Positions 559-58,906 of a DNA stretch of 64,000 nucleotides are shown here, piece by piece. Source of the stretch: an uncultured Planctomycetia bacterium (GTDB lineage: Bacteria > Omnitrophota > Gorgyraeia > Duberdicusellales > Duberdicusellaceae); assembly GCA_964634935.1 (NCBI GenBank), contig CAZWJT010000002.1:138643-202642 (forward strand). The letters run 5' to 3'. The position numbers and the translations under genes were made by a program. Below the pieces are notes generated by a model. The model did no database searches, was not told the origin of the DNA, and saw nothing but the letters and a program-made list of their open reading frames with translations. How positions within the stretch are numbered: position 1 is the stretch's first letter; every line of letters begins with the position of its first letter.

Positions 559-1005
559 ATGTATCTGAAAAGAAAAATAAATAAACCATTAGGGCAGCTT
601 TTGATTGAGCGGGGTCTTTTAACTACAGTTCAGCTAGAAAAGGCCCTGGGATTACAGCGTGAAAAAGGGGGATTGATCGGTGAGGTTATTATCTCGTTGG
701 GTTTTGTTACTGAAATAGAAATAGCCCACGCCTTGTCGCTGCAATATGGATTTCCTTATTTGCCCCTAGAGAATTACGGTATTTCACCCGAAGCTTTGGC
801 AACAATCCCGCGCCAAGTAGCAGAGCAATACTGCCTGGTTCCTCTTGATAAGGTTGGCAATACACTAATGGTCGCCACCGCTGATCCTTTAAATAGTCAT
901 GCGATCGAAGATATTGAATATTTAAGCGGATGTGCGGTGCAAATTTTTGTCAGCACGGTTTCGGATATTCGGAATGCGATCTCTAAGTACTATGCTCAAT
1001 CATAA
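559..1005 (+). CDS. Standalone MshEN / T2SSE_N domain protein (c-di-GMP-binding N-domain of GspE/MshE type, no ATPase domain)
   Basis: 148 aa. The N-terminus carries two tandem 24-aa motifs matching the MshEN c-di-GMP consensus RLGxxLLxxGLLxxxxLxxxLxxQ: PLGQLLIERGLLTTVQLEKALGLQ, a 5-aa spacer REKGG, then LIGEVIISLGFVTEIEIAHALSLQ. The rest resembles a GspE N-terminal domain (…LVPLDKVGNTLMVATADPLN…). Confidence 0.7.
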   Translation: MYLKRKINKPLGQLLIERGLLTTVQLEKALGLQREKGGLIGEVIISLGFVTEIEIAHALSLQYGFPYLPLENYGISPEALATIPRQVAEQYCLVPLDKVGNTLMVATADPLNSHAIEDIEYLSGCAVQIFVSTVSDIRNAISKYYAQS

Positions 1006-1086
1006 CGGGTGTGAAAGTTTTTTTGTATTCCGGTATTTTCCTTCCATGCCGCCGGTAACGCTTGTTCTAACGGGTGAAGATAGCAG

Positions 1087-4472: not shown

Positions 4473-4473
4473 T

Positions 4474-5679
4474 ATGGCTCTTTTTGAATATATTGCGAAA
4501 AATCAGGAAGGAAAAGTTTTTAAGGGGCGGGTGGATGAACTTTCCAAAAGCAAGGTCATTGATATACTCCACTCAAAGAACCTCGTTATTATTTCGATTA
4601 GCGATGTTAAGAAAAAACTTTTTGATTTTAAGTTTGCCCAGTCGGTAACCCCTGAAGAAATCGTCATTTTTTGCCGGCAGTTGACGACGCTCATTGATAG
4701 TGGAGTTTCATTAGTCCAGTCGGTTGAGATATTAAATGAACAAACAAAAAACCAAAAACTTCGAGAAATATTATCCCGTGTTTTAACCGATGTCCGTGAG
4801 GGAAATGCATTTCACGCATCACTTGCAAAATTTCCCGCAGTATTTTCTTCTTTCGTCCTCAGTATGATAAAAGCTGGAGAGGCATCGGGGAATCTGCCAG
4901 AAATTTTGGACAGGGTAAGCACATATCTTGAAGAATCACTTTCTTTGCAGCGCAAAGTAAAATCCAGTCTTACGTATCCCGCGGTTGTCATTTGTATGGC
5001 GATTGCTATAACTACTTTTTTGATCGTAAAAGTAATCCCGACCTTTAAAGGAATTTTTGATTCTTTGGGCGGAACCTTGCCGCTTCCTACGCAAATGCTG
5101 TTGAGTCTGAGCGATTTTTTAAGCAGATTTATTTTTCTTTTTCTTGGTATTCTGGTCGCAGCCGGAATCGCGTTCAAGCGTTATCTTCGTACGGATCGGG
5201 GAAAAAAACAATTTGATTTTTTAATTTTGAAGTTGCCTATTATCGGCGATTTATTGAGAAAAGTTGCTATTGCTCAGTTCTGCCGGACATTTTCGACTCT
5301 TGTTCGCAGCGGAGTACCCATTTTGAATACACTGGATATTGTGGGAGCAACTTCCGGCAATAAAATTATTGAAGCGGCGGTTCTTACGGCAAAAAAATCA
5401 GTTCAAGAGGGGGAGCCGCTTTCCGAGCCTCTTGCGAGGACAAACATTTTTCCGATCATGGTCACTCGTATGATTGCAATCGGAGAGAAAACAGGAAAGC
5501 TCCAGGAGATGCTTTCGCGAATCGCCGATTTTTACACTGATGAAGTCAATACTGCGGTAGAGGGTTTAACAAGTATTATTGAACCTCTGATTATCGGCAT
5601 CTTGGGTGTTGTTATCGGAGGTATTGTTATTGCACTCTTTTTGCCGATTCTGAAAATTACCGAATTGGTTGGAGCATAA
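4474..5679 (+). CDS. pilC: PilC/GspF-family inner-membrane platform protein (two T2SSF domains)
   Basis: 401 aa. Duplicated T2SSF domain pattern (…GEASGNLPEILDRV… and …IGEKTGKLQEMLSRIADFY…) with three TM segments. Starts 2 nt after the upstream ATPase stop. Confidence 0.85.
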   Translation: MALFEYIAKNQEGKVFKGRVDELSKSKVIDILHSKNLVIISISDVKKKLFDFKFAQSVTPEEIVIFCRQLTTLIDSGVSLVQSVEILNEQTKNQKLREILSRVLTDVREGNAFHASLAKFPAVFSSFVLSMIKAGEASGNLPEILDRVSTYLEESLSLQRKVKSSLTYPAVVICMAIAITTFLIVKVIPTFKGIFDSLGGTLPLPTQMLLSLSDFLSRFIFLFLGILVAAGIAFKRYLRTDRGKKQFDFLILKLPIIGDLLRKVAIAQFCRTFSTLVRSGVPILNTLDIVGATSGNKIIEAAVLTAKKSVQEGEPLSEPLARTNIFPIMVTRMIAIGEKTGKLQEMLSRIADFYTDEVNTAVEGLTSIIEPLIIGILGVVIGGIVIALFLPILKITELVGA

Positions 5680-8826: not shown

Positions 8827-10059
8827 ATGATTCGGAATATTAAAATACTTGCGATGATTATGGCTGGCGGCAGAGGAGAGCGTCTTTATCCTTTGACTTT
8901 AGACCGAACGAAGCCTTCTGTCCCTTTTGCCGGTAAGTACCGGATTATTGATTTTGTGCTCAGTAATTTTATTAATTCGGGAATATATTCAATTTATGTT
9001 TTAGTCCAGTATAAATCGCAATCACTTATTGAACATATTCGCAGTGGATGGAAGCGGCAGGGGATGCTTTCGAGTCATTTCATTACGGTCGTTCCTCCTC
9101 AGATGCGGCGGGGACAGAAGGAGTGGTATCGGGGAACAGCCGACTCAATTTATCAGAATATCAACCTTATTCTTGATTTTAAACCTGATTTAGTCGCTGT
9201 TTTCGGAGGCGATCATATCTATCGAATGAACATTAATGATATGATACACGCGCATATAACAAAAAAAGCTGACGTTACGGTAGCCTGTATGCCATGTTGT
9301 AAAGAGCAAGCTGGGGCTTTTGGGATTGTCGATATTGATGCGAATGCGATGGTCAAGAGATTTCGCGAAAAACCGAAAAATCTCAGTCTGATCCGAGGAC
9401 AAGAAGTTTTCATCTCGATGGGAAATTATATTTTTTCAACGAATGCGTTGATTGAATCGTTACGTGCGGATGATGCATACAAAAATTCTTCCCATGATTT
9501 TGGGAAAGATGTGATTCCTTCCCTTGTTGCACAAAAAAAACGTGTATTTTCATACGATTTTTCGAAAAATAAAGTCCCGGGCTTAAAGCCCTATGAAAAG
9601 AAGGAATATTGGCAAGACGTTGGGACGATTAAAAGTTTCTGGCAATCGAATATGGAAATACTTGGAGAAAACCCGGTGTTCGATCTCGACAATCGGCAAT
9701 GGCCAATCTATGCATCATCGCTTGATTGTCCGCCAGCAAAAATAGTGAAAAGTGAAATTGTAAATTCTTGTCTTGCAGAAGGATGCATTTTATCCAATGC
9801 ATTCGTCAAAAATTCTATCTTGGGAAGATCGGTCATTCTTGAGGCCGATGTTGAAATTGAAAACTCGATCATTATGGATTTTTGTCTTATCAAGAAAGGA
9901 GCAAAAATCCGCAACGCAATTATTGACCGTTTCAACGTGATTCCCGCTCATACTCGGATCGGTTATAACCGACTTCAGGATGCCCGCGCGTATCATTACG
10001 ATGTTGAATCGGGCATTGTTGTTGTAAAGCGCGGAGCCCGCCAGGTATTGTATTGGTAA
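8827..10059 (+). CDS. glgC: Glucose-1-phosphate adenylyltransferase
   Basis: N-terminal AMIMAGGRGERLYPLTLDRTKPSVPFAGKYRIIDFVLSNFINSGI (nucleotidyltransferase G-loop and GlgC signature). C-terminal left-handed beta-helix region. 410 aa. Confidence 0.85.
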   Translation: MIRNIKILAMIMAGGRGERLYPLTLDRTKPSVPFAGKYRIIDFVLSNFINSGIYSIYVLVQYKSQSLIEHIRSGWKRQGMLSSHFITVVPPQMRRGQKEWYRGTADSIYQNINLILDFKPDLVAVFGGDHIYRMNINDMIHAHITKKADVTVACMPCCKEQAGAFGIVDIDANAMVKRFREKPKNLSLIRGQEVFISMGNYIFSTNALIESLRADDAYKNSSHDFGKDVIPSLVAQKKRVFSYDFSKNKVPGLKPYEKKEYWQDVGTIKSFWQSNMEILGENPVFDLDNRQWPIYASSLDCPPAKIVKSEIVNSCLAEGCILSNAFVKNSILGRSVILEADVEIENSIIMDFCLIKKGAKIRNAIIDRFNVIPAHTRIGYNRLQDARAYHYDVESGIVVVKRGARQVLYW

Positions 10060-10077
10060 TTTGTTTTTGTATCTTCA

Positions 10078-11955
10078 ATGCGGAAACGAACAAGTGAGTT
10101 TGATGTCATTGTTGTAGGAGCAGGCCATGCGGGCATTGAAGCAGCTTCTGCTGTTTCGCGCCTGAAGTGTTCCGTGCTTCTTATCACAATGAGCATTGAT
10201 AACATCGGAAAAATATCCTGTAATCCTGCGGTTGGCGGGGTTGCAAAATCGCACTTGGTCCGGGAGGTAGATATTTTCGGCGGAGCCATCGCTCGGCTTG
10301 CTGATTTGTCCGCAACCCAATATCGAGTGTTGAATCAGAGTAAAGGTAAAGCGGTCTGGGCTCTGCGCGTTCAAATCGACCGCCACCTGTATAATCGCCA
10401 GGCAAAAGATCTCATCCTGTCCTTGCCCAATCTCCGCGTATTTGAAACTGAGGTAGAAGAAATTTTGACGCTGAGAAACAGAGTATACGGGGTGTTAACT
10501 CAAGCAGGGGAATTTTTTTCATCTCGGGTTATTCTCTGTCCCGGAACATTTCTTGATGGACTCGTACATATCGGTTTTCGGCATTTTCCTCAAGGACGAT
10601 TAGGAGAGCCAGCTTCACAGGGTCTTTTTCGCTCTCTAAAAAAACACGGATTTTTACTGAAACATTTTAAAACCGGCACATGTCCACGGATAGATTTCCG
10701 CACGCTTGATTTTTCCCGGATGAACGAACAAAAGCCAGATTATCAAGCGGGTCCGTTTTCGATATATACCGATGGCATTCCAAATAATCAGTTGAGTTGT
10801 TTTATTACCGCTACGAATCAAAAAACACACGCGCTTGTAAAACGTAATTTGCGGTATTCTCCTCTTTACCAAGGCATTATTAAGGGTACAAGCGTGCGTT
10901 ACTGTCCTTCATTGGAGGATAAGGTAGTGAAGTTTGACGCACGAAAAAGCCATCATGTTTTCATTGAGCCAGAAGGTTTTTCTACATTTGAAGCCTACCC
11001 GAACGGCATTTCGAATTCTCTTCCATTTGATGTGCAATGTGAGCTTGTTCACTCCATTCCAGGCATGGAGAAGGCAACTATCCTAAAACCCGGATACGGG
11101 ATAGAACATGCGGTCATTGATGCCCGCGTGCTCTATCCAACTCTTGAAGCAAAAAAAATCCGAGGCCTCTTTTTTGCCGGGCAGATCAACGGAACAACTG
11201 GATATGAAGAGGCAGCAGCTCAGGGGTTAGTTGCAGGGGTAAACGCTGCTTTGCAGATTCATAAAAAACCGCCTTTTATTTTGGGTCGCCGTGAAAGCTT
11301 TATTGGTCTTTTGATTGATGAACTTATTGAAAAAGGCACCAATGAACCATACCGAATGTTTACCTCGCGCTCCGAACTACGGATGACACTAAGAGAAAGT
11401 AATGCTGACAGGCGACTGTATCGCATGTCTTTTCAATACGGACTTATTGACGAAAAAATATTTCATCGAATTGCTGAGAAGGAAAAAAGAATTCAGGAGT
11501 CAATACGGCAGTTAAAAACCATCAAGATTCATCCAACGCCAGACGTAAACCAAAAACTTCTCCAACTCAACACAAGTTCAATTCATCAAACTATTTGTCT
11601 TGGTGATCTATTGAAGCGGCCGCAAATCGTTTTTTCCCACCTTTCCCATTTTTCCTATATTTCTAAGCTTACTCCCCGGGAAGAAGATGAGGTTGAGATT
11701 GAGATTAAATACGAAGGGTTTTTAAAGCGGGAATTACATCAACTCGCAGAACTGAAAGATTTGGATCGGGTAAAATTGCCGTATATTCCTCAAGTTTCCG
11801 GGCTTTCTCGTGAAATTATTGAAAAGCTTAAAACTTTTCAGCCTAGAACAATCGGACAGGCTCTGCAAATTCCCGGATTCACCGTTGCCGCAGCGCTCAT
11901 TCTTCTTAATTATTTTCGCTCAAAAAAACATTCCAAACAATCCCTGGAAAAATAA
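10078..11955 (+). CDS. mnmG: tRNA uridine 5-carboxymethylaminomethyl modification enzyme MnmG (GidA)
   Basis: FDVIVVGAGHAGIEAA FAD-binding motif, 625 aa, MnmG-typical length and conserved blocks (…GPRYCPSIEDK-like SVRYCPSLEDKVVKF…). Confidence 0.9.
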   Translation: MRKRTSEFDVIVVGAGHAGIEAASAVSRLKCSVLLITMSIDNIGKISCNPAVGGVAKSHLVREVDIFGGAIARLADLSATQYRVLNQSKGKAVWALRVQIDRHLYNRQAKDLILSLPNLRVFETEVEEILTLRNRVYGVLTQAGEFFSSRVILCPGTFLDGLVHIGFRHFPQGRLGEPASQGLFRSLKKHGFLLKHFKTGTCPRIDFRTLDFSRMNEQKPDYQAGPFSIYTDGIPNNQLSCFITATNQKTHALVKRNLRYSPLYQGIIKGTSVRYCPSLEDKVVKFDARKSHHVFIEPEGFSTFEAYPNGISNSLPFDVQCELVHSIPGMEKATILKPGYGIEHAVIDARVLYPTLEAKKIRGLFFAGQINGTTGYEEAAAQGLVAGVNAALQIHKKPPFILGRRESFIGLLIDELIEKGTNEPYRMFTSRSELRMTLRESNADRRLYRMSFQYGLIDEKIFHRIAEKEKRIQESIRQLKTIKIHPTPDVNQKLLQLNTSSIHQTICLGDLLKRPQIVFSHLSHFSYISKLTPREEDEVEIEIKYEGFLKRELHQLAELKDLDRVKLPYIPQVSGLSREIIEKLKTFQPRTIGQALQIPGFTVAAALILLNYFRSKKHSKQSLEK

Positions 11956-11968
11956 AAACATTTTACTC

Positions 11969-13090
11969 TTACGCTTGAGCTAAAGTGATAATTTCTTGGG
12001 CAGTGCGCATGCAGGCGTTTTCTGGAAGGAGTTCTTTTCGGAGATCGTGAAGCGCACCACGCAGAGCGGCGGTTTGCTGATGATCACTCAACAAACTGCA
12101 TGCTTTCTGGGCGATACGCTCAGGAGTCGCATCATTTTGAATGAACTCCGGAAATATATTTTTTTGTGCGATGATATTTGGCATGGCAATAAAGGGCACA
12201 CGAACGAGAAATTTCAAAATGTGCCAGCTCAGCGCATTGAGTTTGTAGAATACAATGGAGGGAACACCTAAGATTGCCAATTCCATAGTGACGGTGCCAG
12301 ATGCAGTAAGCGCAAGATCGCATGCCTTCATGTGTTCGTAATGACGGGTCGGGATGCAAACAGTATCGTTTGCTTTTAATATTGAGAATAATTCATCAGG
12401 AAGTTGTGGATGCTGGAAGACTATAAACCGGGCGCGAATTTTTTTTGCGATAATTTCTTTGGCAGCATGCAGCATCGGAAGATGATGTATCACCTCTTTT
12501 TTCCGAGATCCGGGTAGAAGTCCGATAACTTTTTCATCCGAAGCTAGCGACAGGGTTTTCTTTATTTCCGATACGTCAGCTGATGTCGGGAGTATTTCAA
12601 GTAAGGGATGGCCGACATAGACAACGGATATTTTGGCCTCCCGGTAGAGTTTTTCTTCAAACGGGAAAATAACCGCGATTTTGTCCACATATCTTTTAAT
12701 CTGGATGATCCTTTTTTTACGCCAAGCCCAAACCTGTGGGCTGATAAAATAGAATACCTTATATCCTTTTTTCTTGAGAATTTTACTTAGGCGTAAGTTA
12801 AAATCAGGGTAATCAACCAAAACAACAACGCTTGGTTTTATTTCATCGATCGACTTTGTGATCGAATGAAATGCTGCAAGAACTTTATGAATATAGCGTC
12901 CGACTTCCCAGATCCCTGTTACCGCAAGGGCAGTGAGTGGAAAGACACAATGCGTTGCTTGCTCAAGATGGTTCCCTCCGGCGGAGAAGATTCCGATGTC
13001 TGGTTTGATGGTTTTTAAGTGCGTTGCCACTCGGGCAGCATAGAGGTCGCCCGATGGATCACCCGCGACAAAAAAGACAGAATCAGACAT
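11969..13090 (-). CDS. lpxB: Lipid-A-disaccharide synthase
   Basis: 373 aa. N-terminus MSDSVFFVAGDPSGDLYAARVATHLK matches the LpxB start (…AGEPSGD…). GT-B fold pattern throughout. Confidence 0.85.
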   Translation of the reverse strand: MSDSVFFVAGDPSGDLYAARVATHLKTIKPDIGIFSAGGNHLEQATHCVFPLTALAVTGIWEVGRYIHKVLAAFHSITKSIDEIKPSVVVLVDYPDFNLRLSKILKKKGYKVFYFISPQVWAWRKKRIIQIKRYVDKIAVIFPFEEKLYREAKISVVYVGHPLLEILPTSADVSEIKKTLSLASDEKVIGLLPGSRKKEVIHHLPMLHAAKEIIAKKIRARFIVFQHPQLPDELFSILKANDTVCIPTRHYEHMKACDLALTASGTVTMELAILGVPSIVFYKLNALSWHILKFLVRVPFIAMPNIIAQKNIFPEFIQNDATPERIAQKACSLLSDHQQTAALRGALHDLRKELLPENACMRTAQEIITLAQA

Positions 13091-14006
13091 GCGTTTTTGC
13101 GATGTTACGGTCTATTTCCAGGGCAATACGCAAAGCATCAAGTATCGCTTCGGTTTGTGAAAAATCAGGATCCTTTTTTTCAGATTCGGAAAGAAATGCA
13201 GCAATTTCTTCCTTTAAGGGTTCGTCTTTCGGGATGTCAAGCCGCTGCTGTACGATGCCGGCATCGGTTTTCGTGAAGATTTCGGCTTCTTGCTTCGCGT
13301 AATTGACTGAGATATAAGTTTTAGGAAGAAAAATGCGAATCTTGCGCAGTGAATCCCGGGATATTCGGGAAGCGGAAATGTCAGCAATGCAGCCGTTTTG
13401 GAATGAAATCCGCGCATTCGCAATGTCGGTTGTATTCGAAAGCACCTGGACTCCTACCGCATCGATCCGTTTTACTTTTGATTGGACAAGCGACAAAATA
13501 ATATCCAGATCGTGGATCATAAGATCCAATACGACACTGATATCAAGTGAGCGATTTGGAAAGGGACTCAGTCGGTCGCATTCGATAAACTTTGGTTTTT
13601 TAGCGATCTCGCGGATGCGTTTGAATGCCGGATTGAATCGTTCAACGTGCCCAACCATTAACACAACTCGATTTTTTTTTGCCAGATTGAGCAAAATACG
13701 TGCGTTGCTAAGGTTGTTGCTTAGGGGTTTTTCTACTAAGCAATTCACGCGGTGACTGAGAAAAAAACGAGCTATCGGAAAATGGAGCAAGGTGGGAGTA
13801 GCAATACTGATTGCATCGGGTTTCAGCTTCATTAGCTCTTGATAATTTGTTGTGGCGAGAGCGATGTTTGGGAAGAGACACTTTAGTTCACTGAGTCGAT
13901 TTATGTCTGTGTCACAAATACCGACGATTTCTGCATTCGGCAACGCAGCGTAAATTTTGGTATGAAGAGAACCAAGTTTTCCGAGACCAACTATCGCGAC
14001 TCTCAT
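13083..14006 (-). CDS. Gfo/Idh/MocA-family NAD-dependent oxidoreductase, possibly GnnA-like (UDP-GlcNAc 3-dehydrogenase of the GlcN3N lipid A pathway)
   Basis: MRVAIVGLGKLGSLHTKIYAALPNAEIVGICD Rossmann N-terminus and a Gfo/Idh/MocA C-domain. Overlaps the lpxB start by 8 nt (same operon). The GnnA call is a context inference only. Confidence 0.5.
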   Translation of the reverse strand: MRVAIVGLGKLGSLHTKIYAALPNAEIVGICDTDINRLSELKCLFPNIALATTNYQELMKLKPDAISIATPTLLHFPIARFFLSHRVNCLVEKPLSNNLSNARILLNLAKKNRVVLMVGHVERFNPAFKRIREIAKKPKFIECDRLSPFPNRSLDISVVLDLMIHDLDIILSLVQSKVKRIDAVGVQVLSNTTDIANARISFQNGCIADISASRISRDSLRKIRIFLPKTYISVNYAKQEAEIFTKTDAGIVQQRLDIPKDEPLKEEIAAFLSESEKKDPDFSQTEAILDALRIALEIDRNIAKTHV

Positions 14007-14129: not shown

Positions 14130-15941
14130 ATGAATAACTATTTAAAGCTTTTGCGATTTATCCACAGCTATAAATCCCTTTTTATTTTTGCGTTTCTGTG
14201 CATGGGGGTTTCGACTCTTTTTGATGGCGTAAGCATGGGAATGATCATTCCGGTTGCTGATAAAATATTAACCAACAAGCATATTATTCTTCCGCGCGGT
14301 CTTCCTTCGGTGATCCAGGATTTTGTTGCATACCTCAACAGTTTCGATCCCCTCACTCTTCTGTACGGGAGTGTTGTTTTTTTGCTTATTCTTTTCATTC
14401 TGAAAGGAATTATTCTTTTTATTCAAGGGTACCTTATGAATTTTATTGCACAATCGGTTGTCCGGGACGTGCGAGAAAAGATTTTTTCAAAACTTCAGGA
14501 ATTATCGTTGGATTTTTATTCAACCGCCCGGACGGGCGAACTTATTTCCAGGGTTACGAATGATGCCGGAATTCTCAGCAACGCACTTTCCTACGGAATC
14601 ACAGATCTTATTTATCAGTCAATGCAGGTTGTTCTTTTTACGACGGTCGCTGTTATTATTAATTGGAAACTTGCGTTCTTAACCTTGGTTGTTTTTCCGG
14701 CGATTATTTATCCGATTGTCCGCGTGGGGCGAAAATTAAAAAAACTTTCGCGTACCACCCAAGAACGGATGGCAGATTTGAATATTATTCTTTCGGAAAC
14801 GATTTCGGGAGTGCGCATTGTCAAGGGATTTTCTCAGGAATCTGCCGAAGTGGGGCGTTTTAAACGGAGCAATAACGAGTATTTCCGATTTACCATGAAA
14901 TCGATAAAGCGTACCTTGCTGTTATCTCCGGTTACAGAATTCATCGGTGTTATCGCCGCGGTTATTATATTTTTAATCGGCGGCAGAGATGTCATTGAAG
15001 GTCGGCTTTCTTTCGGTGTTTTTGGCTTCTTCTTCGGGGCGCTTATGTCTATGGTCCGTCCGTTCAAGAAGCTCTCGCAAGTGCATGCGATTAATCAGCA
15101 GGCAATTGCCGCTTCCGAGCGTATCTACACAATCCTGGAGCAAAAGCCGACGGTTGTCGACCATCACGGGTCACTCGCAATACGCGCGCCCACAAATACA
15201 ATTCGCTTCGAGGATATCTGGTTTCGCTATAACCAGAAAGAGGATTTAATTCTTCGTGGCGTTTCGTTTGAAGCTCGCATCGGCCAAACGATTGCGTTGG
15301 TTGGCTCAAGCGGAAGCGGTAAGTCTACTCTCGTAAATCTTATTCCCAGATTTTATGATCCTGACAAAGGGCGTGTTCTTTTTGATGATTTTGATATACG
15401 CCATGCTACGACAAAATCCCTACGCGCGTTTATGGGGATCGTGACTCAAGAAACAGTTCTATTTAACGAAACTGTTGCGTCAAATATCGCTTACGGCAAA
15501 CCTACCGCCTTGCCAGAAGAGATTTATGCTGCGGCTCGAAAAGCTCTTGCGCATGATTTTATTGAGCGTCTTCCCAAGAAGTACGATACGGTCATTGGGG
15601 ATCGTGGTTTTCGGCTCTCTGGCGGAGAAAAACAGCGTATTTGCATCGCACGTGCTATTATTCGCAATCCCGCAATTTTAATCCTTGATGAGGCTACTTC
15701 GCAGCTCGATACAGAATCTGAGCGTATTGTTCAATCGGCTTTGGAGAATGCCATGAAGGACCGGACTGTTTTTGTTATTGCCCATCGCCTGTCAACCGTG
15801 GTAAATGCTTCAAAGATTTTATTAATTCAGAATGGGGCTATTGCTGCAAGCGGAACACATAACGAGTTGCTAAGAAACAACGGTTTTTATCGGAATTTAT
15901 ATGACCGGCAATTTGAGGCAAAGGAGCAAAAAAATATTTGA
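14130..15941 (+). CDS. msbA: ABC transporter permease/ATPase, MsbA-like lipid A/lipid exporter
   Basis: 603 aa. Six-TM N-domain plus NBD with Walker A GSSGSGKST, ABC signature LSGGEKQRICIARAI and Walker B ILILDEATS. Divergently placed next to lpxB. Confidence 0.75.
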   Translation: MNNYLKLLRFIHSYKSLFIFAFLCMGVSTLFDGVSMGMIIPVADKILTNKHIILPRGLPSVIQDFVAYLNSFDPLTLLYGSVVFLLILFILKGIILFIQGYLMNFIAQSVVRDVREKIFSKLQELSLDFYSTARTGELISRVTNDAGILSNALSYGITDLIYQSMQVVLFTTVAVIINWKLAFLTLVVFPAIIYPIVRVGRKLKKLSRTTQERMADLNIILSETISGVRIVKGFSQESAEVGRFKRSNNEYFRFTMKSIKRTLLLSPVTEFIGVIAAVIIFLIGGRDVIEGRLSFGVFGFFFGALMSMVRPFKKLSQVHAINQQAIAASERIYTILEQKPTVVDHHGSLAIRAPTNTIRFEDIWFRYNQKEDLILRGVSFEARIGQTIALVGSSGSGKSTLVNLIPRFYDPDKGRVLFDDFDIRHATTKSLRAFMGIVTQETVLFNETVASNIAYGKPTALPEEIYAAARKALAHDFIERLPKKYDTVIGDRGFRLSGGEKQRICIARAIIRNPAILILDEATSQLDTESERIVQSALENAMKDRTVFVIAHRLSTVVNASKILLIQNGAIAASGTHNELLRNNGFYRNLYDRQFEAKEQKNI

Positions 15942-38420: not shown

Positions 38421-39386
38421 ATGATAGTGCTTACCGGTGCCGCTGGCTTTATCGGAAGTTGTATTTTAGCTCATCTGAATTTACATGGAGTAGACGACAC
38501 GATTATCGTCGATCACCTCGATACAACCTCATCGTGGAAAAATCTTATCGGAAAATCTTTTTCTCGTTATCTTGATAAAAATGACCTATTTTCGTTTTTG
38601 GAAAAATCGAACTTCGCCAAAAAGATCGATCTGGTTATTCATATGGGGGCATGTTCTTCTACCACTGAAACCGATGCCGATTATTTGCTCAAAAACAATT
38701 TCCTCTATTCCCAGAACTTAGCTACATGGTGTTTTACCCGGAAAATTCGTTTCATCTATGCGTCAAGTGCTGCGGTGTATGGGGATGGCAGCCAAGGTTA
38801 TTCTGATGATCACGCGAAAACTTTCCAGCTCCGGCCGTTGAATATGTACGGATTCAGTAAGCTTTTATTTGACCAGTGGATTATCCGTAATCATTTTGAC
38901 ACACAAAGCTTAGGGATGCGATTTTTCAATGTCTATGGCCCGAATGAATATCATAAGCAAGAGATGCGCAGTGTTGCTTTAAAGGGCTATTTGCAAATCA
39001 AAAAAGACGGCCACTTGAAGCTCTTTCGGTCATACCACCCAGCTTATTTAGACGGCGAGCAAAAGCGGGATTTTATCTATGTCAAAGATATCTTGTCTAT
39101 TGTTGATTTTTTTCTCAATCATCCATCACTCGGTGGTATTTTTAATATTGGAACTGGTAACGCGTCTACCTGGAATCAGCTCGGAAAGGCTATTTTTTCG
39201 GCACTTGCACTGGAAGAAAAAATTCAGTATATTGATATGCCGGAAGATTTACGTTCGGCTTATCAGTATTATACATGCGCGGACATGGAGAAATTGAGGA
39301 ACGCAGGTTTCAGTACGAAATTATCGACTATTTTCGAAGGAATCCAGGACTACGCGAGTTATTTTAAGGAAGAACGCTACTTATAG
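38421..39386 (+). CDS. hldD: ADP-L-glycero-D-manno-heptose-6-epimerase
   Basis: MIVLTGAAGFIGS Rossmann start, catalytic S…YxxxK region (…YGFSKLLFDQW…), 321 aa; typical HldD/RfaD length and motifs. Confidence 0.8.
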   Translation: MIVLTGAAGFIGSCILAHLNLHGVDDTIIVDHLDTTSSWKNLIGKSFSRYLDKNDLFSFLEKSNFAKKIDLVIHMGACSSTTETDADYLLKNNFLYSQNLATWCFTRKIRFIYASSAAVYGDGSQGYSDDHAKTFQLRPLNMYGFSKLLFDQWIIRNHFDTQSLGMRFFNVYGPNEYHKQEMRSVALKGYLQIKKDGHLKLFRSYHPAYLDGEQKRDFIYVKDILSIVDFFLNHPSLGGIFNIGTGNASTWNQLGKAIFSALALEEKIQYIDMPEDLRSAYQYYTCADMEKLRNAGFSTKLSTIFEGIQDYASYFKEERYL

Positions 39387-45449: not shown

Positions 45450-46733
45450 ATGAGTAGCATCTATAGATTATTATACGATGTTTTGTTTTTGTGCGGAGGA
45501 TTATTGTATTTTTTCAAATATTTGCTCCGCGGAAGGATTCGGCGTGAATTCTTTAAGCGATGCGGATTTTTTGTGAAAGATGATTTTCTTAAGCTTTCCC
45601 ATGCGGAAAATTCTATTTGGATTCATGCAGTAAGCGTTGGGGAAGTTGCCCTTGTTCGCGGATTTCTCCCAATTATACACCAAAAATTCCCCAATGTTCC
45701 TGTTGTTCTTTCGGTGATTACGCCTTCGGGATATGAAGCGGCCCAGGTATTTTTGCGCAATCATGTTGCGCACGTTTTTTTTGCCCCGATAGACCTTAGT
45801 TTTGTAACAAAAAAAATGGTTCACGCGGTAAAACCAAAAATTTTCATCGCAATTGAAACTGAATTATGGCCTATGCTTTATTATCAGCTCTGGAAAATGA
45901 AGGTTCCCATTATTATTTTGAATGGACGCATTTCTGACAAAAGCTTCCGGCGTTACCAAAAACTGCGGTTTGTCTTACATTTTCTTTTTCGCTGGATCAC
46001 TCTGATCGCTGCTCAAGATTCACTTGCCCATGAAAGATTTCTTGCCTTGGGTGCATCTGACCGTAAAACAAAAACTGTCGGAAATTTAAAGTACCTTGCG
46101 GTAACTTGTTCGGAGGAGCGCATAGCGGAAGTAACGAAACATTGGCGATTCATAAGCGGGATTGAGTCATATCAGGTTATTCTGGCTGCAAGCACCCATT
46201 TTCCCGAAGAAAAATTTGTTTTTGAGGCATTTCAAAAAGTACGCGAGCGCTTTCCAAAGGTAGTTTTGCTTCTCTGTCCGCGACATCGCGAACGAGCTCA
46301 GGAGGTATTCAAAGAATCTCTTGCATGCGGATTTTCGTGCGAACGCTTTAGCACCTTAACCACACAAAGGAAAGAGGTGTATATTCTTGATACAATCGGA
46401 GATCTTTTTTATTCTTACTCCTTCTCCGATGTTGTTTTTTTGGGTGGAAGCCTGGTTCCCGCAGGCGGGCACAATATCATCGAACCAGCATATTTTGCTA
46501 AACCCGTAATTGTTGGGCCGCACACGTATAATTTCTCAGAAATAGTTAATACTTTTATTTCGGAAAAAGCTCTTCTTAAAATTGATGGTCCGGAGCAACT
46601 CCCCGAAGCCTTTTTACTGATGCTTGAAAACAGCCAGCTGGCTCATGAACTTGGTACCCGTGCCCATGAGGTTGTGCGCAAGAAACAGGATTCTTTACGG
46701 AGAAACATTGAAACTGTATTTGATGAAAAATAA
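45450..46733 (+). CDS. waaA: 3-deoxy-D-manno-octulosonic acid (Kdo) transferase
   Basis: IWIHAVSVGEVALVRGFLPIIHQKFPNVPVVLSVITPSG matches the WaaA N-domain signature (…HAVSVGE…). 427 aa GT-B fold. Confidence 0.85.
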   Translation: MSSIYRLLYDVLFLCGGLLYFFKYLLRGRIRREFFKRCGFFVKDDFLKLSHAENSIWIHAVSVGEVALVRGFLPIIHQKFPNVPVVLSVITPSGYEAAQVFLRNHVAHVFFAPIDLSFVTKKMVHAVKPKIFIAIETELWPMLYYQLWKMKVPIIILNGRISDKSFRRYQKLRFVLHFLFRWITLIAAQDSLAHERFLALGASDRKTKTVGNLKYLAVTCSEERIAEVTKHWRFISGIESYQVILAASTHFPEEKFVFEAFQKVRERFPKVVLLLCPRHRERAQEVFKESLACGFSCERFSTLTTQRKEVYILDTIGDLFYSYSFSDVVFLGGSLVPAGGHNIIEPAYFAKPVIVGPHTYNFSEIVNTFISEKALLKIDGPEQLPEAFLLMLENSQLAHELGTRAHEVVRKKQDSLRRNIETVFDEK

Positions 46734-47736
46734 AATCATTTTCTTTTATTTGCGGCTTATCCATTCTTCCCCAAGAAACGTTCTTTCGGCTCTTTTGTGT
46801 TTTTTTCTACGAGCCCTGTCATTTCTCTACGGAATTGTTGTTTTCTTAGTTGATAGACTTTATGCTTACCCTATATTTCAGCATGAAACATCGCTTAAAA
46901 TTGTCAGTATTGGAAATATTACATGGGGAGGCACTGGAAAAACTTCTCTGATACTGCTTTTAGCCAAGATATTGGCGCAAACACAAAGAGTGTGCGTTTT
47001 GACTCAGGGGTATGGGAAAGATGAAGATTTTTTGTTGCGGAAACACCTGAATCCTTTGGGAATCGACGTTTTTTCTCAAAAAGACCGTTTGCGTAAAATC
47101 AAAACCTTGGAAGGAAAATACGATATTGTTTTTCTTGATGACGGGTTCCAGTATAGAAAAGTGAAGCATACCGTCGATATTGTTGTATTGAATGCCGTTG
47201 AGCCGCTCGGAAATGGTTTTTTGATACCGAGGGGACAGTTACGAGAACCGATTACTGCCCTGAAACGCGCTCATATTTTTTTCATCAACCATTCGTTGTC
47301 AAAAAATGATTTATCCGAGCAATTAAAGCCCTATGTGTCTATCAAGCCAATGTTTCAAGGTTACTATGAGGCAGATTTTTTGTACGACCAAAATAACCAG
47401 CGTTATTCTCTTGGTTTTTTATCAGATAAGCCGTTTTTGGCTTTTTGCGCCATTGGTTATCCCGATGGGTTTCAACAAATCCTTGCACGCAATAATCTTC
47501 ATCCAAAGCATTTTCGCGCATTTCCAGACCATGCTCATTTAACTCATGCTGAATTTTTAAAGCTCGAACGTTACTGTTATCAGGAAAAAATACGCTATAT
47601 CGTGATTACTGAAAAGGACGCGTATCGTTTCCGAAACTATAGCACCCGACTTTGTATCTTGGTTTTATCAGTAAGTCTCTTTGTCGATAGAAAAAAGGAG
47701 TTCATCGATGAGTTGGCTCGCTTATTATCTTTGTAA
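46723..47736 (+). CDS. lpxK: Tetraacyldisaccharide 4'-kinase
   Basis: …PIFQHETSLKIVSIGNITWGGTGKTSL… (LpxK P-loop VGNLTVGGTGKTP pattern). The ATG at 46723 overlaps the waaA stop. Confidence 0.8.
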   Translation: MKNKIIFFYLRLIHSSPRNVLSALLCFFLRALSFLYGIVVFLVDRLYAYPIFQHETSLKIVSIGNITWGGTGKTSLILLLAKILAQTQRVCVLTQGYGKDEDFLLRKHLNPLGIDVFSQKDRLRKIKTLEGKYDIVFLDDGFQYRKVKHTVDIVVLNAVEPLGNGFLIPRGQLREPITALKRAHIFFINHSLSKNDLSEQLKPYVSIKPMFQGYYEADFLYDQNNQRYSLGFLSDKPFLAFCAIGYPDGFQQILARNNLHPKHFRAFPDHAHLTHAEFLKLERYCYQEKIRYIVITEKDAYRFRNYSTRLCILVLSVSLFVDRKKEFIDELARLLSL

Positions 47737-49591
47737 GCTATTCAGCATATTTTTTTGTCTTATGCCGCTCAATTCGGCTTTGGCTTTCGGCCGCATAGCC
47801 GGAAACTTCGCTTATGCATTTAGCTCCCATAGGCGTGTTATCGCCCTCAAAAACTTAAAACTTGCGTTTCCCGAGCGATCCGAAAAAGTCTTAGTGCGTC
47901 TTATCCGCAAAATGTTCGAAAATTTCGGTATGGCAACTGTTGAAATTTTACGTATTCCAAAGATCGCCCGCGGCTCTCAAAAGACTCATTTTTCAATTGA
48001 AGGAGAAGAATTTTTCCGTGAGCTTTGTCGCGAGCGAGGAATTGCCCTTGGTATTCATATGGGAAGCTGGGAGCTTCTCAACGGCTTGTTAGTTGAGTAT
48101 TTTCCTTACGCGGTATTAGCCAGAAAACAAAAGATTACGGGACTTGACCGCTTTTTGAATGAGCTACGATTATACCATGGAACTTCGGTTATTTTTGAGA
48201 ACGAACTTCTAAAAATGGCAAAATATCTGCGGGAAGGTTACGTTTTAGGTTTAGTTTTTGATCATGGTGGAAGTGATTCTGATTTGAATGTACCGTTTTT
48301 CGGAAAACGTGTTCCAGTGCCTGCGGGAGCCTTGAGGCTTGCTTATCGGTTTCATAAGAAAATATTTCCATGCGCACTACATCGTAAGAGTCATGGACAT
48401 CATGTATTGCAGGTTGGAGCACCTCTCACGATCGATAGTGAAAATATGTTTTTCGAGTATGCCTTAACGCTTCACCGTATTTTTGAAGGATATATCCGGA
48501 TGCATCCAGAAGAGTATCTCTGGTTCTTCAAGCGCTTTAAAAGAAGCGTTGATACGAAACTTCTTGTTCTTTCTGATGGAAAGGCTGGACATCTAAAGCA
48601 ATCACAGGCAATAGCTGAAATAGTCAAGACAAACTTTGAACGAGTGAGCGTTGAAGAAATCGAAGTTTCTTTGACATACCTGCAAAGATTTTTTCTGAAT
48701 TCTCTGCTCGGTATTCTATATATTCGGCGCAAACGCCAGAGCCGTTTCTTTAAAATAATTCTCGGTAGGCAGTTTGATAGGATTTTTCGGTACGCGGATT
48801 TGGTTGTTTCTACGGGAGGGGCTTTGTCGTCATTAAACAGAATCTTTAGTTGGATGATGGACGCAAAATCAATTAACATTTTTCGTCCAGCAATCGCATC
48901 TCAGACTTTTGACCTTCTTTTTATTCCGCGTCATGATCACCCAGCGAATCTCAAAAATCTAGTCCAGTTTGAGGGAGCTATCGTTTCTCAGGATATCGAC
49001 AATATTGAACGGGGTAAAAAACATCTACTCGAGAGTATACCAAGCTATTCATCCGATCTTCCCGTTCTCGGTATTTTTTTGGGCGGTCCGGTAAAGGGCA
49101 GAGGGTTTTCTCTGGAAATCGAAAAATTGTTCTCGGTTTTTCGGCGTATTCATTTGATGCGTCCAATACAACTTTTTATCAGTACGTCACGCAGAACACC
49201 TTCGTTGTTTGAAGAAAAAATCGAGCAGATGTCCCAAGGTAACCCACTAGTTAAAATTTTCATTTCGTCAGAGAAAAACAATTTTCCATTTGCGAGTGAG
49301 AGCATCATGGCTTTGTCGAGCTTAGTAATTGTTACAGCAGATTCTATTTCCATGCTTACTGAAAGTTGTACGCTTGCTCCAGCAACGATAGCACTCAACG
49401 CTTTCGACAGATTTATGCTTCCTCGAAAACATGGTAGATTTCTGATGGAACTCGAAAAACGGAACCATATCGCATCCGTAACCGTTGATGGATTGTTCGA
49501 TGAATGTGTTTCGGTTCTCTTAAAAAATAAAACGTTTGCGAAACTCGACAACACACAGAATATTATCGAATCATTGAAAACAATCATATGA
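47681..49591 (+). CDS. Fusion protein: LpxL/HtrB-type lipid A late acyltransferase (N-terminal ~290 aa) fused to an ELM1/DUF1022-family domain (C-terminal ~340 aa)
   Basis: N-terminal …LAFGRIAGNFAYAFSSHRRVIALKNLKLAFPE… and the HxxxxD-position region (…HMGSWELLNG…) are typical of the LPLAT/LpxL family. C-terminal LLVLSDGKAGHLKQSQAIAE…VTADSISMLTES matches ELM1/DUF1022 hallmarks (lsdgk.Gh.nQ…, tADSvSMlsEa). A single uninterrupted ORF of 636 aa. Confidence 0.65.
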   Translation: MSIEKRSSSMSWLAYYLCKLFSIFFCLMPLNSALAFGRIAGNFAYAFSSHRRVIALKNLKLAFPERSEKVLVRLIRKMFENFGMATVEILRIPKIARGSQKTHFSIEGEEFFRELCRERGIALGIHMGSWELLNGLLVEYFPYAVLARKQKITGLDRFLNELRLYHGTSVIFENELLKMAKYLREGYVLGLVFDHGGSDSDLNVPFFGKRVPVPAGALRLAYRFHKKIFPCALHRKSHGHHVLQVGAPLTIDSENMFFEYALTLHRIFEGYIRMHPEEYLWFFKRFKRSVDTKLLVLSDGKAGHLKQSQAIAEIVKTNFERVSVEEIEVSLTYLQRFFLNSLLGILYIRRKRQSRFFKIILGRQFDRIFRYADLVVSTGGALSSLNRIFSWMMDAKSINIFRPAIASQTFDLLFIPRHDHPANLKNLVQFEGAIVSQDIDNIERGKKHLLESIPSYSSDLPVLGIFLGGPVKGRGFSLEIEKLFSVFRRIHLMRPIQLFISTSRRTPSLFEEKIEQMSQGNPLVKIFISSEKNNFPFASESIMALSSLVIVTADSISMLTESCTLAPATIALNAFDRFMLPRKHGRFLMELEKRNHIASVTVDGLFDECVSVLLKNKTFAKLDNTQNIIESLKTII

Positions 49592-56579: not shown

Positions 56580-57219
56580 AGAAAAAAAGATTTATTTTTT
56601 CCTTTTTTCATTTATCTTTGGAATTATCCTTGTTTTTCCTGGAATGCTTCGTGCGCAGTCGAATCCTGAACCTTTTGTGTTAAAAAAGAAAGATTCTCCG
56701 CAATCATCACCCTGGTTTCTTCGCTGGATTCCTGAAAAGAAAAAGAAAACAGGAACTTCCGGCAAAAAAAACATACAACAAACCCAACCAGATCGGCCAT
56801 GCGCTGTGCTGGAACAAGATTTCAGCAGGTGCAAGCAAAATAATTCTCTGCTCAATGACCAACTAGCTACGACTATAAGCGAATTAGAAAATGCAAAGCT
56901 TGAACTTGAACGGCTTCGAAAGAATTTAAAAGCATTACAGAATTTTGTCGTAGCGGCAAATCTACTCACGAAAGAACAAATTGAAGAATTGCAGGATGGG
57001 AACTGGGAACTGACTCTGGAAAAACTCTTACAGACTCAAGGTAAGCCAGAACGCAGTGATTTTCATGAAGTAACCAAAGGGGAATCCCTCTGGAGTATTG
57101 CCCAGAAAGAATACAACAACCCTTATAAGTGGCTCCTTTTGTATCATGCGAACAAAGACCAGATTTATGATGCAGACCTCATCTACCCCGGAATGGTTCT
57201 TATTATCCCTCGATATTAG
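56560..57219 (+). CDS. LysM-domain coiled-coil protein with N-terminal signal/anchor
   Basis: MEKKLHREKKIYFFLFSFIFGIILVFPGMLRA. Coiled-coil segment …LATTISELENAKLELERLRKNLKAL… C-terminal LysM HEVTKGESLWSIAQKEYNNPYKWLLLYHANKDQIYDADLIYPGMVLIIP. The track ORF start at 56284 is an extension overlapping the PEP-CTERM gene. Confidence 0.7.
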   Translation: MEKKLHREKKIYFFLFSFIFGIILVFPGMLRAQSNPEPFVLKKKDSPQSSPWFLRWIPEKKKKTGTSGKKNIQQTQPDRPCAVLEQDFSRCKQNNSLLNDQLATTISELENAKLELERLRKNLKALQNFVVAANLLTKEQIEELQDGNWELTLEKLLQTQGKPERSDFHEVTKGESLWSIAQKEYNNPYKWLLLYHANKDQIYDADLIYPGMVLIIPRY

Positions 57220-57220
57220 C

Positions 57221-58906
57221 ATGTTTAAAAAACATTCCTTCCTCCTTGTTTTCTTGGTTACGAGCATAGTTTCGGTATATGCCGCAATGAGTCGTACTGT
57301 GGACGAGGCTCTTCTCGAAGTTGAAATGGGCAAAAGAGTAGAAGGAATCCTCGACAAACTCATCGGCAGCCAGCGAAGTATCGTTGACGTCAAAGTAACC
57401 TTGAAAGATATGACCGAAAGCGACATTGGAAAGCTGCGTATGCTTCGTCATACGCTCCCTGGCATGGCTACATCACAGATGCAAGACGAAAACGAACAGA
57501 ATGCAACTGATCCAAAAAACCGGTTTAAAGTTCTAGCTCCCCTTATTTCAACAATGAGCGTTACCATTTTAGTAGACGAGAAACTTCCGAAGGAAAAAAT
57601 TACTATAATTGAAAAAGAAATACCGCCGCTTATTGGTTTAAATCTTGCCAAAGGCGACCTATTAACAGTGAAGCCAATCCCTTGGAAAGATGTTCTCACT
57701 GAAGAAATGGCGATTAAACAGGTGGGATTATCCAAAAGTTCTTATTTTGTTCTTGTTTTAATAGCTGTTTTTACTGGTGGAGTTGTTATTTTTTTCTTCA
57801 GCCAATTTTTAGGAAAAAAGCTGAAAAAAATATCAGCGGATCAACTTGATACATTCAGCAGTTATGCGAATAAGATGGATGTCGCTCGAGGTGACCTTAC
57901 AGATTCGCTTCATAAAATGGGTGAAGCATTACAGCAAATGATGCAGTCAGAAAGTGGGGGACATGGCGGAGGCGCACGAGAAATGTCTGATGTTCTTCAA
58001 AAACTTATTGAAACGCAAAAAGAAGTAAGCGATTCAAGTACGGACAGAATCACCGAAGCTCTTATGGAGCTCAAGGACTCACTTGGGGAAGTTGGAGGCG
58101 GCGGTCCAGGCGGAGGCGGAGCAGGAGGGGCAGGAGGTGGAGGATTTGGAGGAGGCGGAGCAGGGGGGACAGGAGGTGGAGGCGGAGAAGGAATTTCAAA
58201 GCTGGCCGCAGAATCACAAGATCCAATGACCAAGGCTTTGGCTATTATGAATTCCTTAAAACCCGAAGAAATTATGCAAATCCTCCAAGATGAAGATGCG
58301 CATATGAAAGCGATTGTTGTGGCTCATTTAAGTCCTGAAAAATCTGCGGAATTTCTCCTTGCGCTTGATGATGAAAATCGGAACACGCTTACGACCGCAA
58401 TAGCTCAAATTCCAGAAGGTGACATTGAAAGTCTTTTAGCATTGAAGGATTTTCTTGATAAAAAAGCAACCGTCATTATGCATCGCAATCTCCTGCCTGG
58501 AAAGGCGGCTCGAGCAATGGCAAAAATGTTGAGCCGTTCATTACCAGAAGTACGCAAGTCTGTTCTTGATAATATTCGGAAACGAACCCCAGAAGTGGCT
58601 GAAGAAATTGAAGATAGTTTGTTTTTATTCGACGATATCAGCAAACTTGATGATCGAACAATAAAAAGCGTTATCGCCAATATTGACCGCAATGTTTTAA
58701 TCAGGGCATTGAAAAAAGCAAGCAGTACCACCAAGGAGAAAATACTGGCGACCTTTACCCCCCGATCTCGGTCTATTCTTGAAGAAGATATCGATGTTCT
58801 TGGCGAAATCCCTTTTCAGGTTTGTCTGCAGGCCCAGAACATTATTCTTGATCGTATTGATATTTTAATTGAAGAGGGAAATTTTGGAACAGCGAGTACA
58901 GGATAA
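57221..58906 (+). CDS. Bitopic membrane protein combining a YscJ/FliF-like periplasmic ring-building motif, a TM helix, a poly-Gly linker and FliG-like middle plus C-terminal (torque-helix) domains
   Basis: 561 aa from the ATG at 57221. Signal/TM1 FLLVFLVTSIVSVYA. Periplasmic EVEMGKRVEGILDKLIGSQRSIVDVKVTLKD (cf. FliF/YscJ LEGELARTIESLxGVxSARVHL). TM2 YFVLVLIAVFTGGVVIFFF. G-rich tract GGGGPGGGGAGGAGGGGFGGGGAGGTGGGGG. FliG-like EIMQILQDEDAHMKAIVVAHLSPEKSAEFL… and LFLFDDISKLDDRTIKSVIANIDRNVLIRALKKASSTTKEKILATFTPRSRSILEEDIDVLGEIP…IILDRIDILIEEG (cf. FliG MFVFEDL…LALKGA…MSQRAADILRDDL…IVRRLAETGE). Confidence 0.6.
   Translation: MFKKHSFLLVFLVTSIVSVYAAMSRTVDEALLEVEMGKRVEGILDKLIGSQRSIVDVKVTLKDMTESDIGKLRMLRHTLPGMATSQMQDENEQNATDPKNRFKVLAPLISTMSVTILVDEKLPKEKITIIEKEIPPLIGLNLAKGDLLTVKPIPWKDVLTEEMAIKQVGLSKSSYFVLVLIAVFTGGVVIFFFSQFLGKKLKKISADQLDTFSSYANKMDVARGDLTDSLHKMGEALQQMMQSESGGHGGGAREMSDVLQKLIETQKEVSDSSTDRITEALMELKDSLGEVGGGGPGGGGAGGAGGGGFGGGGAGGTGGGGGEGISKLAAESQDPMTKALAIMNSLKPEEIMQILQDEDAHMKAIVVAHLSPEKSAEFLLALDDENRNTLTTAIAQIPEGDIESLLALKDFLDKKATVIMHRNLLPGKAARAMAKMLSRSLPEVRKSVLDNIRKRTPEVAEEIEDSLFLFDDISKLDDRTIKSVIANIDRNVLIRALKKASSTTKEKILATFTPRSRSILEEDIDVLGEIPFQVCLQAQNIILDRIDILIEEGNFGTASTG

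Follow-up and report, generated by a model that had tools for sequence, protein, structure and literature searches.

The ELM1 family (Pfam Mito_fiss_Elm1, PF06258, formerly DUF1022) belongs to Pfam clan CL0113, the GT-B glycosyltransferases (GTs), and owes its Pfam name to Arabidopsis ELM1. In this study we describe a gene that fuses an ELM1 domain to an LpxL-type lipid A acyltransferase and that may encode a bifunctional enzyme acting late in the assembly of Kdo-lipid A (Kdo, 3-deoxy-D-manno-oct-2-ulosonic acid). It lies on contig CAZWJT010000002.1 of assembly GCA_964634935.1, from an uncultured bacterium labelled Planctomycetia and placed by GTDB in the Omnitrophota (Gorgyraeia; Duberdicusellales; Duberdicusellaceae). 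The whole stretch analyzed, positions 138,643 to 202,642 of the contig (64,000 nucleotides), is referred to as the window, and coordinates in it are counted from its first letter.

The closest described systems come from Acinetobacter baumannii, in which four Mito_fiss_Elm1 proteins of the GT-B clan (GtrOC1, GtrOC14, GtrOC19, and GtrOC22) are encoded at the outer-core locus (Kenyon 2014, PMC4172580; 2023 update, PMC10327509). The gene of GtrOC1 is listed first in this locus (PMC4172580, PMC10327509), and its product was proposed to form the first inner-to-outer core linkage (Kenyon 2014, PMC4172580). Deletion of the ELM1-like gene A1S_2903 truncates the lipooligosaccharide (LOS) to Kdo2-lipid A (VanOtterloo 2024, mBio, PMC10936431), and a CRISPR interference study of 2025 equated A1S_2903 with gtrOC1 and linked it to the lpt genes (PMC11975115). 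The purified protein, named KdoT, transfers Kdo from cytidine monophosphate (CMP)-Kdo to Kdo2-lipid IVA or Kdo2-lipid A, rejects lipid IVA, and makes an alpha-KdoIII-(2->5)-KdoI linkage (J Biol Chem December 2025, PMC12856342). It was proposed to be an inverting GT-B enzyme outside the characterised glycosyltransferase families. R180 of its invariant SRRT motif is required, with R180K tolerated, and the SRRT arginines were proposed to position the donor, one of them touching the Kdo carboxylate in the published models. Single mutants of D8, H13, H109, and D110 stay active. The protein has no transmembrane helix and is only partly membrane-associated, and a kdoT deletion is complemented by homologs from other Acinetobacter species and Rickettsia rickettsii (all PMC12856342). 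KdoT is dependent on GnaT in cells, and the chaining and division defect of the deletion exceeds what its LOS chemotype accounts for (PMC10936431).

According to a first-pass annotation of the window, no bacterial function had been defined biochemically for the ELM1 domain, and the fusion would give this orphan family a role. Both statements have been overtaken, since the role of KdoT was demonstrated genetically in 2024 (PMC10936431) and with the purified enzyme in 2025 (PMC12856342). The fusion opens no new functional class, as those two years settled the orphan-family question; moreover, fusion proteins from Omnitrophota already carry the NCBI product name 'ELM1/GtrOC1 family putative glycosyltransferase'. 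What is new here is the architecture (LpxL::KdoT-like, with an LpxK::KdoT-like variant), neither form of which was found in the literature searched, together with its distribution across a phylum.

Architecture of the fusion gene

The open reading frame (ORF) at 47681..49591 on the forward strand holds 636 open codons starting at TTG, and its translation contains both peptides (LLVLSDGKAGHLKQSQAIAE and VTADSISMLTES) by which the ELM1 part had originally been recognized. The start of the gene is most likely ATG 47708, giving 627 amino acids (Table 1). This start is favoured because a Shine-Dalgarno-type AAGGAG stands 7 nt 5' of it and because it keeps an N-terminal helix that aligns with homologs. 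On the other hand, the NCBI record (P0001) begins at ATG 47762 and gives 609 amino acids. That deposited start is probably too short, because the upstream ATG has the canonical Shine-Dalgarno sequence; a start at 47762 also loses the greater part of the conserved hydrophobic helix at the N-terminus. Hydropathy (Kyte-Doolittle windows >1.5 over residues 1-27) and AlphaFold2 (AF2; helices at residues 2-18 and 21-38) both describe this N-terminal segment.

Both halves score far above their Pfam cut-offs. The frame is a true fusion, as first proposed. Lip_A_acyltrans (PF03279) reaches 148.7 bits against a cut-off of 22.3, with profile positions 17-295 of 295 matched, and Mito_fiss_Elm1 reaches 110.7 bits against a cut-off of 27, with positions 1-296 of 304 matched. 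The AF2 prediction of the whole chain from an alignment of 53 fused sequences had a mean predicted local distance difference test (pLDDT) of 92.6 and a predicted template modelling score (pTM) of 0.90.

The first-pass annotation had advised that continuity be verified near position 48540. The fusion is no frameshift artefact, and three lines of evidence support continuity at about 48540-48560. A Logan assembly of run SRR12133403, generated separately, has a contig that encodes an identical protein of 627 residues. A search of 5.8 billion proteins, clustered at 90% identity, returned 79 matches, among which at least 76 clusters carry both Pfam domains in 570-700 residues, at 26-41% identity to the window protein. 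Across the 53 aligned sequences the junction P-x-x-Y-L-W-x-x-K-R-[FW]-K-x-S-x-x-x-x-[LIV]-L-V-L-S-D-G-K-A-G-H aligns with its length kept and without a linker.

Table 1. Features of the fusion gene, its flanking core block, and other lipid A and core genes in the window
Feature	Position	Strand	Evidence or remark
lpxL::ELM1 (KdoT-like) fusion gene	47708..49591	+	627 aa; ORF analysis, Pfam, AAGGAG
N-terminal hydrophobic helix, aa 1-27, MSWLAYYLCKLFSIFFCLMPLNSALAF, likely membrane anchor	47708..47788	+	
Lip_A_acyltrans domain (LpxL/LpxM/LpxP-type), aa 7-279	47726..48544	+	Pfam PF03279, E 2.7e-43
HX4E catalytic motif HMGSWE (H117...E122)	48056..48073	+	alignment of 53 fused homologs
Domain junction HPEEYLWFFKRFKRSVDTKLLVLSDGKAGHL, without linker	48503..48595	+	contiguous, length-conserved in 53-sequence alignment
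SDGKAGH loop after first N-lobe strand (D290, H295; KdoT D8, H13)	48572..48592	+	59/60 conserved
Mito_fiss_Elm1 / ELM1-GtrOC1-KdoT family GT-B domain, aa 293-619	48584..49564	+	Pfam PF06258, E 9.7e-32
HD motif (H409, D410; KdoT H109, D110)	48932..48937	+	60/60 conserved
SRRT motif (S494-R495-R496-T497; KdoT R179/R180, donor positioning)	49187..49198	+	S, R, R 60/60; T 59/60
DSISMLTE helix, C-lobe (S546, M549, E552)	49340..49363	+	three residues 60/60 conserved
waaA, Kdo transferase; product is presumed substrate of both fusion domains	45450..46733	+	Pfam Glycos_transf_N, E 1e-50
lpxK, tetraacyldisaccharide 4'-kinase	46723..47736	+	TIGR00682, 160.3 bits, above cut-off 91.95
GT4::GT9 fusion glycosyltransferase, 690 aa	49588..51660	+	ATG overlaps fusion gene TGA
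GT4 glycosyltransferase, last core-block gene in this genome	51657..52760	+	
hldD, ADP-glyceromanno-heptose 6-epimerase	38421..39386	+	TIGR02197, 377 bits, above cut-off 274.6
lpxB, canonical lipid A disaccharide synthase	11969..13090	-	Pfam LpxB, E 4.9e-89
msbA-like gene	14130..15941	+	

Synteny and distribution in Omnitrophota

The genes around the fusion are ordered topA, xer recombinase, waaA, lpxK, lpxL::ELM1, GT4::GT9, GT4, tgt, and trmD. This agrees with the earlier placement of the fusion in a block of waaA, lpxK, and heptosyltransferase-type genes: waaA and lpxK lie upstream and GT4::GT9 lies downstream. The fusion gene overlaps lpxK by 29 nt, and the overlaps of 4-29 nt between core-block genes fit an operon. 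The waaA gene scored 330.8 bits against NCBIfam NF004388, which is under that model's cut-off of 438.

The named two-domain homologs come almost all from metagenome-assembled genomes (MAGs) of Candidatus Omnitrophota. A locus scan with one genome per species yielded 364 relatives, and the best 80 loci (L009-L088) were analyzed. Nearly all of these are from Omnitrophota; some bear the label Planctomycetia or Planctomycetales and two the label Deltaproteobacteria, and Candidatus Undivivens, which the NCBI taxonomy places in Omnitrophota, is also among them. LpxL is the fusion partner of the ELM1 domain in 75 of these loci and LpxK in four; in the remaining one the domain is free-standing. In all 80 it is located in the waaA-lpxK block, between lpxK (or lpxL) and GT4::GT9. 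Where contigs reach far enough, the full block reads (aroK-dprA-topA-xer-)waaA-lpxK-[lpxL::ELM1]-[GT4::GT9]-GT4-GT9-GT9::GT9.

The LpxK::ELM1 proteins (L031, L035, L040, and L056) form one monophyletic clade of approximately 711-725 residues with a linker of 8-10 residues, and no LpxL domain was found within ±8 kb of their loci. A fifth example (P0082) was retrieved from a metagenome. LpxK::ELM1 is also encoded in CP070837.1, a complete Omnitrophota genome. In Omnitrophota the GT4::GT9 gene adjoins the ELM1 domain in nearly all loci that extend far enough. Tandem GT9::GT9 fusions of approximately 670-690 residues occur in many loci; the window has none, and tgt directly follows GT4. Omnitrophota thus seem to fuse the enzymes of the lipopolysaccharide (LPS) core systematically (i.e., LpxL::ELM1, GT4::GT9, and GT9::GT9).

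The acyltransferase half

Within the HX4E motif H117, G119, W121, and E122 are invariant among the 53 fused homologs, and so is D185. The top Foldseek matches of the N-terminal half were A. baumannii LpxM 5KN7 (E 2.1e-14, target-normalised TM-score 0.65) and mycobacterial PatA. All 17 NCBIfam matches of this half fell below their cut-offs, the best of them being NF006270 (113.3 bits versus 248), and thus no equivalog was reached. From its sequence the half can be called LpxL/LpxM/LpxP-type and nothing more specific, and we infer that it is a secondary acyltransferase dependent on acyl-ACP (ACP, acyl carrier protein). It shares with the LpxL/LpxM/LpxP enzymes (e.g., E. coli LpxL and A. baumannii LpxM) the Pfam family, the HX4E dyad, the N-terminal membrane helix, the 5KN7 fold, and the placement of the gene after waaA and lpxK. 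Unlike them, it bears an extra C-terminal GT-B domain of 345 residues.

The ELM1 half is a GT-B domain with KdoT motifs

Modelled alone with AF2, the ELM1 half (pLDDT 94.8, pTM 0.91) consists of alternating strand-helix elements arranged in two lobes. A comparison of this model with the Protein Data Bank (PDB) gave 151 matches at E<=1e-3, and all among the matches listed were GT-B folds. The nearest were UDP-GlcNAc 2-epimerases, TreT, MurG, and MGD1 (E ~1e-8, TM-scores of 0.5-0.6). The early suggestion that the domain is GT-B-like is therefore borne out by both the predicted fold and its structural matches. A PDB sequence search with the ELM1 half returned no match even at E<=10, and with it no solved structure of a KdoT-type transferase; no NCBIfam model matched the half either.

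Profile comparisons (hhalign) of the ELM1 family with partners built from the same loci gave probabilities of 18% for WaaA, 35% for GT9, 54% and 1.5% for two GT4 profiles, and 0.2% for LpxB, in alignments that span only partial stretches of the C-lobe. Because these matches are low and partial, the ELM1 half is regarded as a separate GT-B family, and membership of GT30 (WaaA), GT9, GT4, or GT19 (LpxB) was rejected. In particular, WaaA/KdtA of GT30, which acts one step earlier in the proposed scheme, aligns over part of the C-lobe only.

Motif conservation was counted over 60 Omnitrophota ELM1 domains (Table 1), and G459-G460 are also among the positions conserved in 59-60 of them. The spacing of D290 and H295 is five residues, the same as that of D8 and H13 in KdoT. 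By analogy with other GT-B enzymes, the helix carrying S546, M549, and E552 would contribute to nucleotide or ribose binding. On the predicted structure, the conserved polar residues should line the cleft between the lobes. The motifs are shared with the free-standing proteins of Rickettsiaceae and Kiritimatiellia, and SRRT is invariant in the cross-phylum alignment.

The ELM1 family outside Omnitrophota

Most proteins retrieved by the cross-phylum profile search were standalone and unnamed; those with names came from Kiritimatiellia, and none came from Acinetobacter. The ELM1 domain of the window matched a Rickettsiaceae ELM1 protein with E 3.3e-13. Neighbourhoods were surveyed through a handful of contig look-ups. 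One free-standing gene (P0091) lies in a GT2-GT9-ELM1-GT4::GT9-GT4-GT9x3 cluster, directly upstream of GT4::GT9, and the ELM1 gene of a MAG labelled Deltaproteobacteria (L067) likewise lies in a GT9-rich cluster directly upstream of GT4::GT9. In Kiritimatiellia the genes are free-standing, with one locus at 3.3 kb from lpxI-lpxB and the other without LPS neighbours. In Rickettsiaceae (MAG GCA_045106955.1) the gene, at 10001-11011, follows an OmpA/Pal-like gene and lies 100 nt upstream of ftsZ (11112-12494), and the marine forms of 320 residues are encoded between an AsnC-type regulator and selO.

The association of ELM1 genes with LPS genes, which had been offered as a way to test the proposed role, thus holds for Omnitrophota and A. 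baumannii and fails for Rickettsiaceae, the marine forms, and most Kiritimatiellia, whose genes lie outside LPS clusters. The association is lineage-specific, strong in some lineages and not universal.

As a separate observation, the Rickettsiaceae gene stands beside ftsZ, the kdoT mutant of A. baumannii has a division defect, and ELM1 of plants functions in the fission of mitochondria; a link between the family and cell division may be a coincidence or may be real.

Proposed role of the fusion protein

With a probability of roughly 0.6, we consider the protein to be a bifunctional late enzyme of Kdo-lipid A assembly, anchored in the inner membrane, whose ELM1 half would attach a further Kdo to the Kdo part of Kdo2-lipid IVA or Kdo2-lipid A. 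The reading is largely by analogy with KdoT. The anchor helix and the acyltransferase half would carry out secondary acylation at the inner membrane, and the ELM1 half would use CMP-Kdo as donor. In E. coli, LpxL requires Kdo2-lipid IVA (the Raetz pathway). The product of the adjacent waaA would be the substrate of both halves, and for this reason the fusion would hold the transferase next to its lipid acceptor, tethering an otherwise soluble or peripheral enzyme to the cytoplasmic side of the inner membrane. In one sub-clade LpxK would take the place of LpxL as the tethering partner. Extension of the core would then fall to the GT4::GT9 and GT4 enzymes. Within this scheme, the donor sugar, the linkage position, the order or channelling between the halves, and the acyl chain are what we infer. 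Further genes of the lipid A and core pathway present in the window are lpxB, an msbA-like gene, and hldD. The synteny in 80 of 80 loci, the independent lpxK::ELM1 fusion, and the free-standing copy in a GT9-rich cluster are consistent with Kdo2-lipid A or an immediate core intermediate as the substrate of the domain, as originally proposed.

The predicted domain resembles KdoT in its Pfam family, GT-B fold, and invariant SRRT, in the equivalent placement of the D...H and HD residues, in the company of lipid A and core genes, and in its predicted acceptor, the WaaA product. Unlike KdoT, which is free-standing, of approximately 35 kDa, peripheral, and without a transmembrane helix, its gene opening the outer-core locus, the domain is part of a larger chain with LpxL (or LpxK), and it is about 40 residues longer. 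The hosts also differ, this one being of a phylum in the Planctomycetes-Verrucomicrobia-Chlamydiae (PVC) group and having heptose synthesis and a GT9 domain. In contrast to Arabidopsis ELM1, which is said to recruit dynamin-related proteins and is not described as an enzyme (PMC10936431), it has no fission-related context in the window.

Several points weigh against this assignment. The likeness to KdoT was drawn through Pfam, the published residues, and the Rickettsiaceae match, so that orthology, as opposed to descent from a paralog, is unproven. The O5 position of KdoI normally carries heptose I, and the presence of hldD (from which the organism makes ADP-L,D-heptose) and of a GT9 domain makes a KdoT-type O5 regiochemistry doubtful here. 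Since the acyltransferase half lies below every NCBIfam equivalog cut-off, neither its specific step (LpxL, LpxM, or LpxP), nor its Kdo dependence, nor its acyl chain can be assigned from sequence. Finally, GtrOC14, GtrOC19, and GtrOC22 presumably form other linkages (PMC10327509), and membership of PF06258 therefore does not fix the donor.

This last point leads to the serious rival, namely that the same bifunctional enzyme adds a non-Kdo sugar (a hexose, hexuronic acid, or heptose) to the Kdo2-lipid A inner core, as a first-core-sugar transferase and not a secondary Kdo transferase. The outer-core linkages predicted for those three paralogs (PMC10327509), the first inner-to-outer core linkage proposed for GtrOC1 (Kenyon 2014), the ADP-heptose made by the organism, and the UDP-sugars bound by the closest PDB folds would all suit such a sugar. 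Nevertheless, KdoT, the sole biochemically characterised member of the family, uses CMP-Kdo, the arginine that contacts the Kdo carboxylate in the KdoT models belongs to a motif that is invariant here, and the ELM1 domain sits beside waaA, lpxK, and lpxL and not among the distal GT genes. We regard a non-Kdo sugar as rather unlikely. Somewhat less likely still is a two-site enzyme with obligatory coupling, a single polypeptide on which secondary acylation and the glycosylation of the Kdo region follow a set order or are linked by channelling, and whose linkage or donor may differ from that of KdoT. Such an enzyme could, for instance, add the second Kdo to the product of a monofunctional WaaA, or a sugar other than Kdo that can coexist with heptose at O5 of KdoI.

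The remaining explanations carry far less weight than a bifunctional Kdo-adding enzyme. A non-catalytic ELM1 half, serving as a scaffold or adaptor that organizes or regulates LPS-assembly enzymes or links them to division (much as plant ELM1 recruits a dynamin-related protein), would accommodate the activity retained by alanine mutants of each candidate base of KdoT, its need for GnaT in cells, the division defect beyond the LOS chemotype (PMC10936431), and the Rickettsiaceae homolog adjoining ftsZ. It is very improbable, given that purified KdoT suffices for Kdo transfer in vitro and that SRRT, HD, the D/H pair, and E552 are invariant across sequences 25-40% identical, as is typical of a ligand-binding active site. 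Replacement of LpxB by the ELM1 domain could be imagined from its GT-B fold, its fusion to lipid A enzymes, and the absence of lpxB from the waaA-lpxK block; it was rejected because a canonical lpxB is present in the same window (Table 1), and Kiritimatiellia genomes have ELM1 along with lpxB, while the profile match to LpxB was negligible. That an error of sequencing or assembly near 48540 joined separate lpxL and ELM1 genes was likewise rejected; nothing was found in favour of it, and it has practically no probability in view of the identical Logan copy, the diverged two-domain clusters, the linker-less junction, the 75 of 80 species-level genomes with the LpxL fusion, and the confident full-chain model.

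Other features of the window

A Gfo/Idh/MocA oxidoreductase gene (13083-14006, minus strand) overlaps lpxB. Its best NCBIfam match is UDP-GlcNAc 3-dehydrogenase, at 198.8 bits and below the cut-off of 450; it could be GnnA-like, hinting at a lipid A that contains 2,3-diamino-2,3-dideoxyglucose (GlcN3N). At 559-5679 on the plus strand, a small ORF with only an MshEN domain is followed by two tandem GspE/PilB-type ATPases and a GspF-like gene. Both ATPases have an MshEN N-domain of the c-di-GMP (cyclic diguanylate)-binding type, and a truncated GGDEF ORF is found at the start of the window. An ORF of 602 residues at 57098-58906 on the plus strand (579 residues in the gene caller's version) has FliG_M and FliG_C as its only domains, both C-terminal, after a long unannotated N-terminal region. 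Its neighbour is a LysM protein, and the window showed no further flagellar genes.

Implications

The fusions to LpxL and LpxK and the invariant synteny provide independent genomic support, of the Rosetta-stone type, for a role of ELM1-like proteins in Kdo-lipid A assembly. They extend this role from Acinetobacter and Rickettsia to Omnitrophota, a phylum of the PVC group, and, through free-standing genes, to Kiritimatiellia. A naturally membrane-anchored bifunctional form could help structural and enzymological work on KdoT-type transferases. Obligatory coupling of the two sites, if it proved real, would give a whole uncultivated phylum a distinct chemistry of the inner core, and would mean that LpxL and LpxK can replace each other as partners of the ELM1 domain along the lipid A assembly line.

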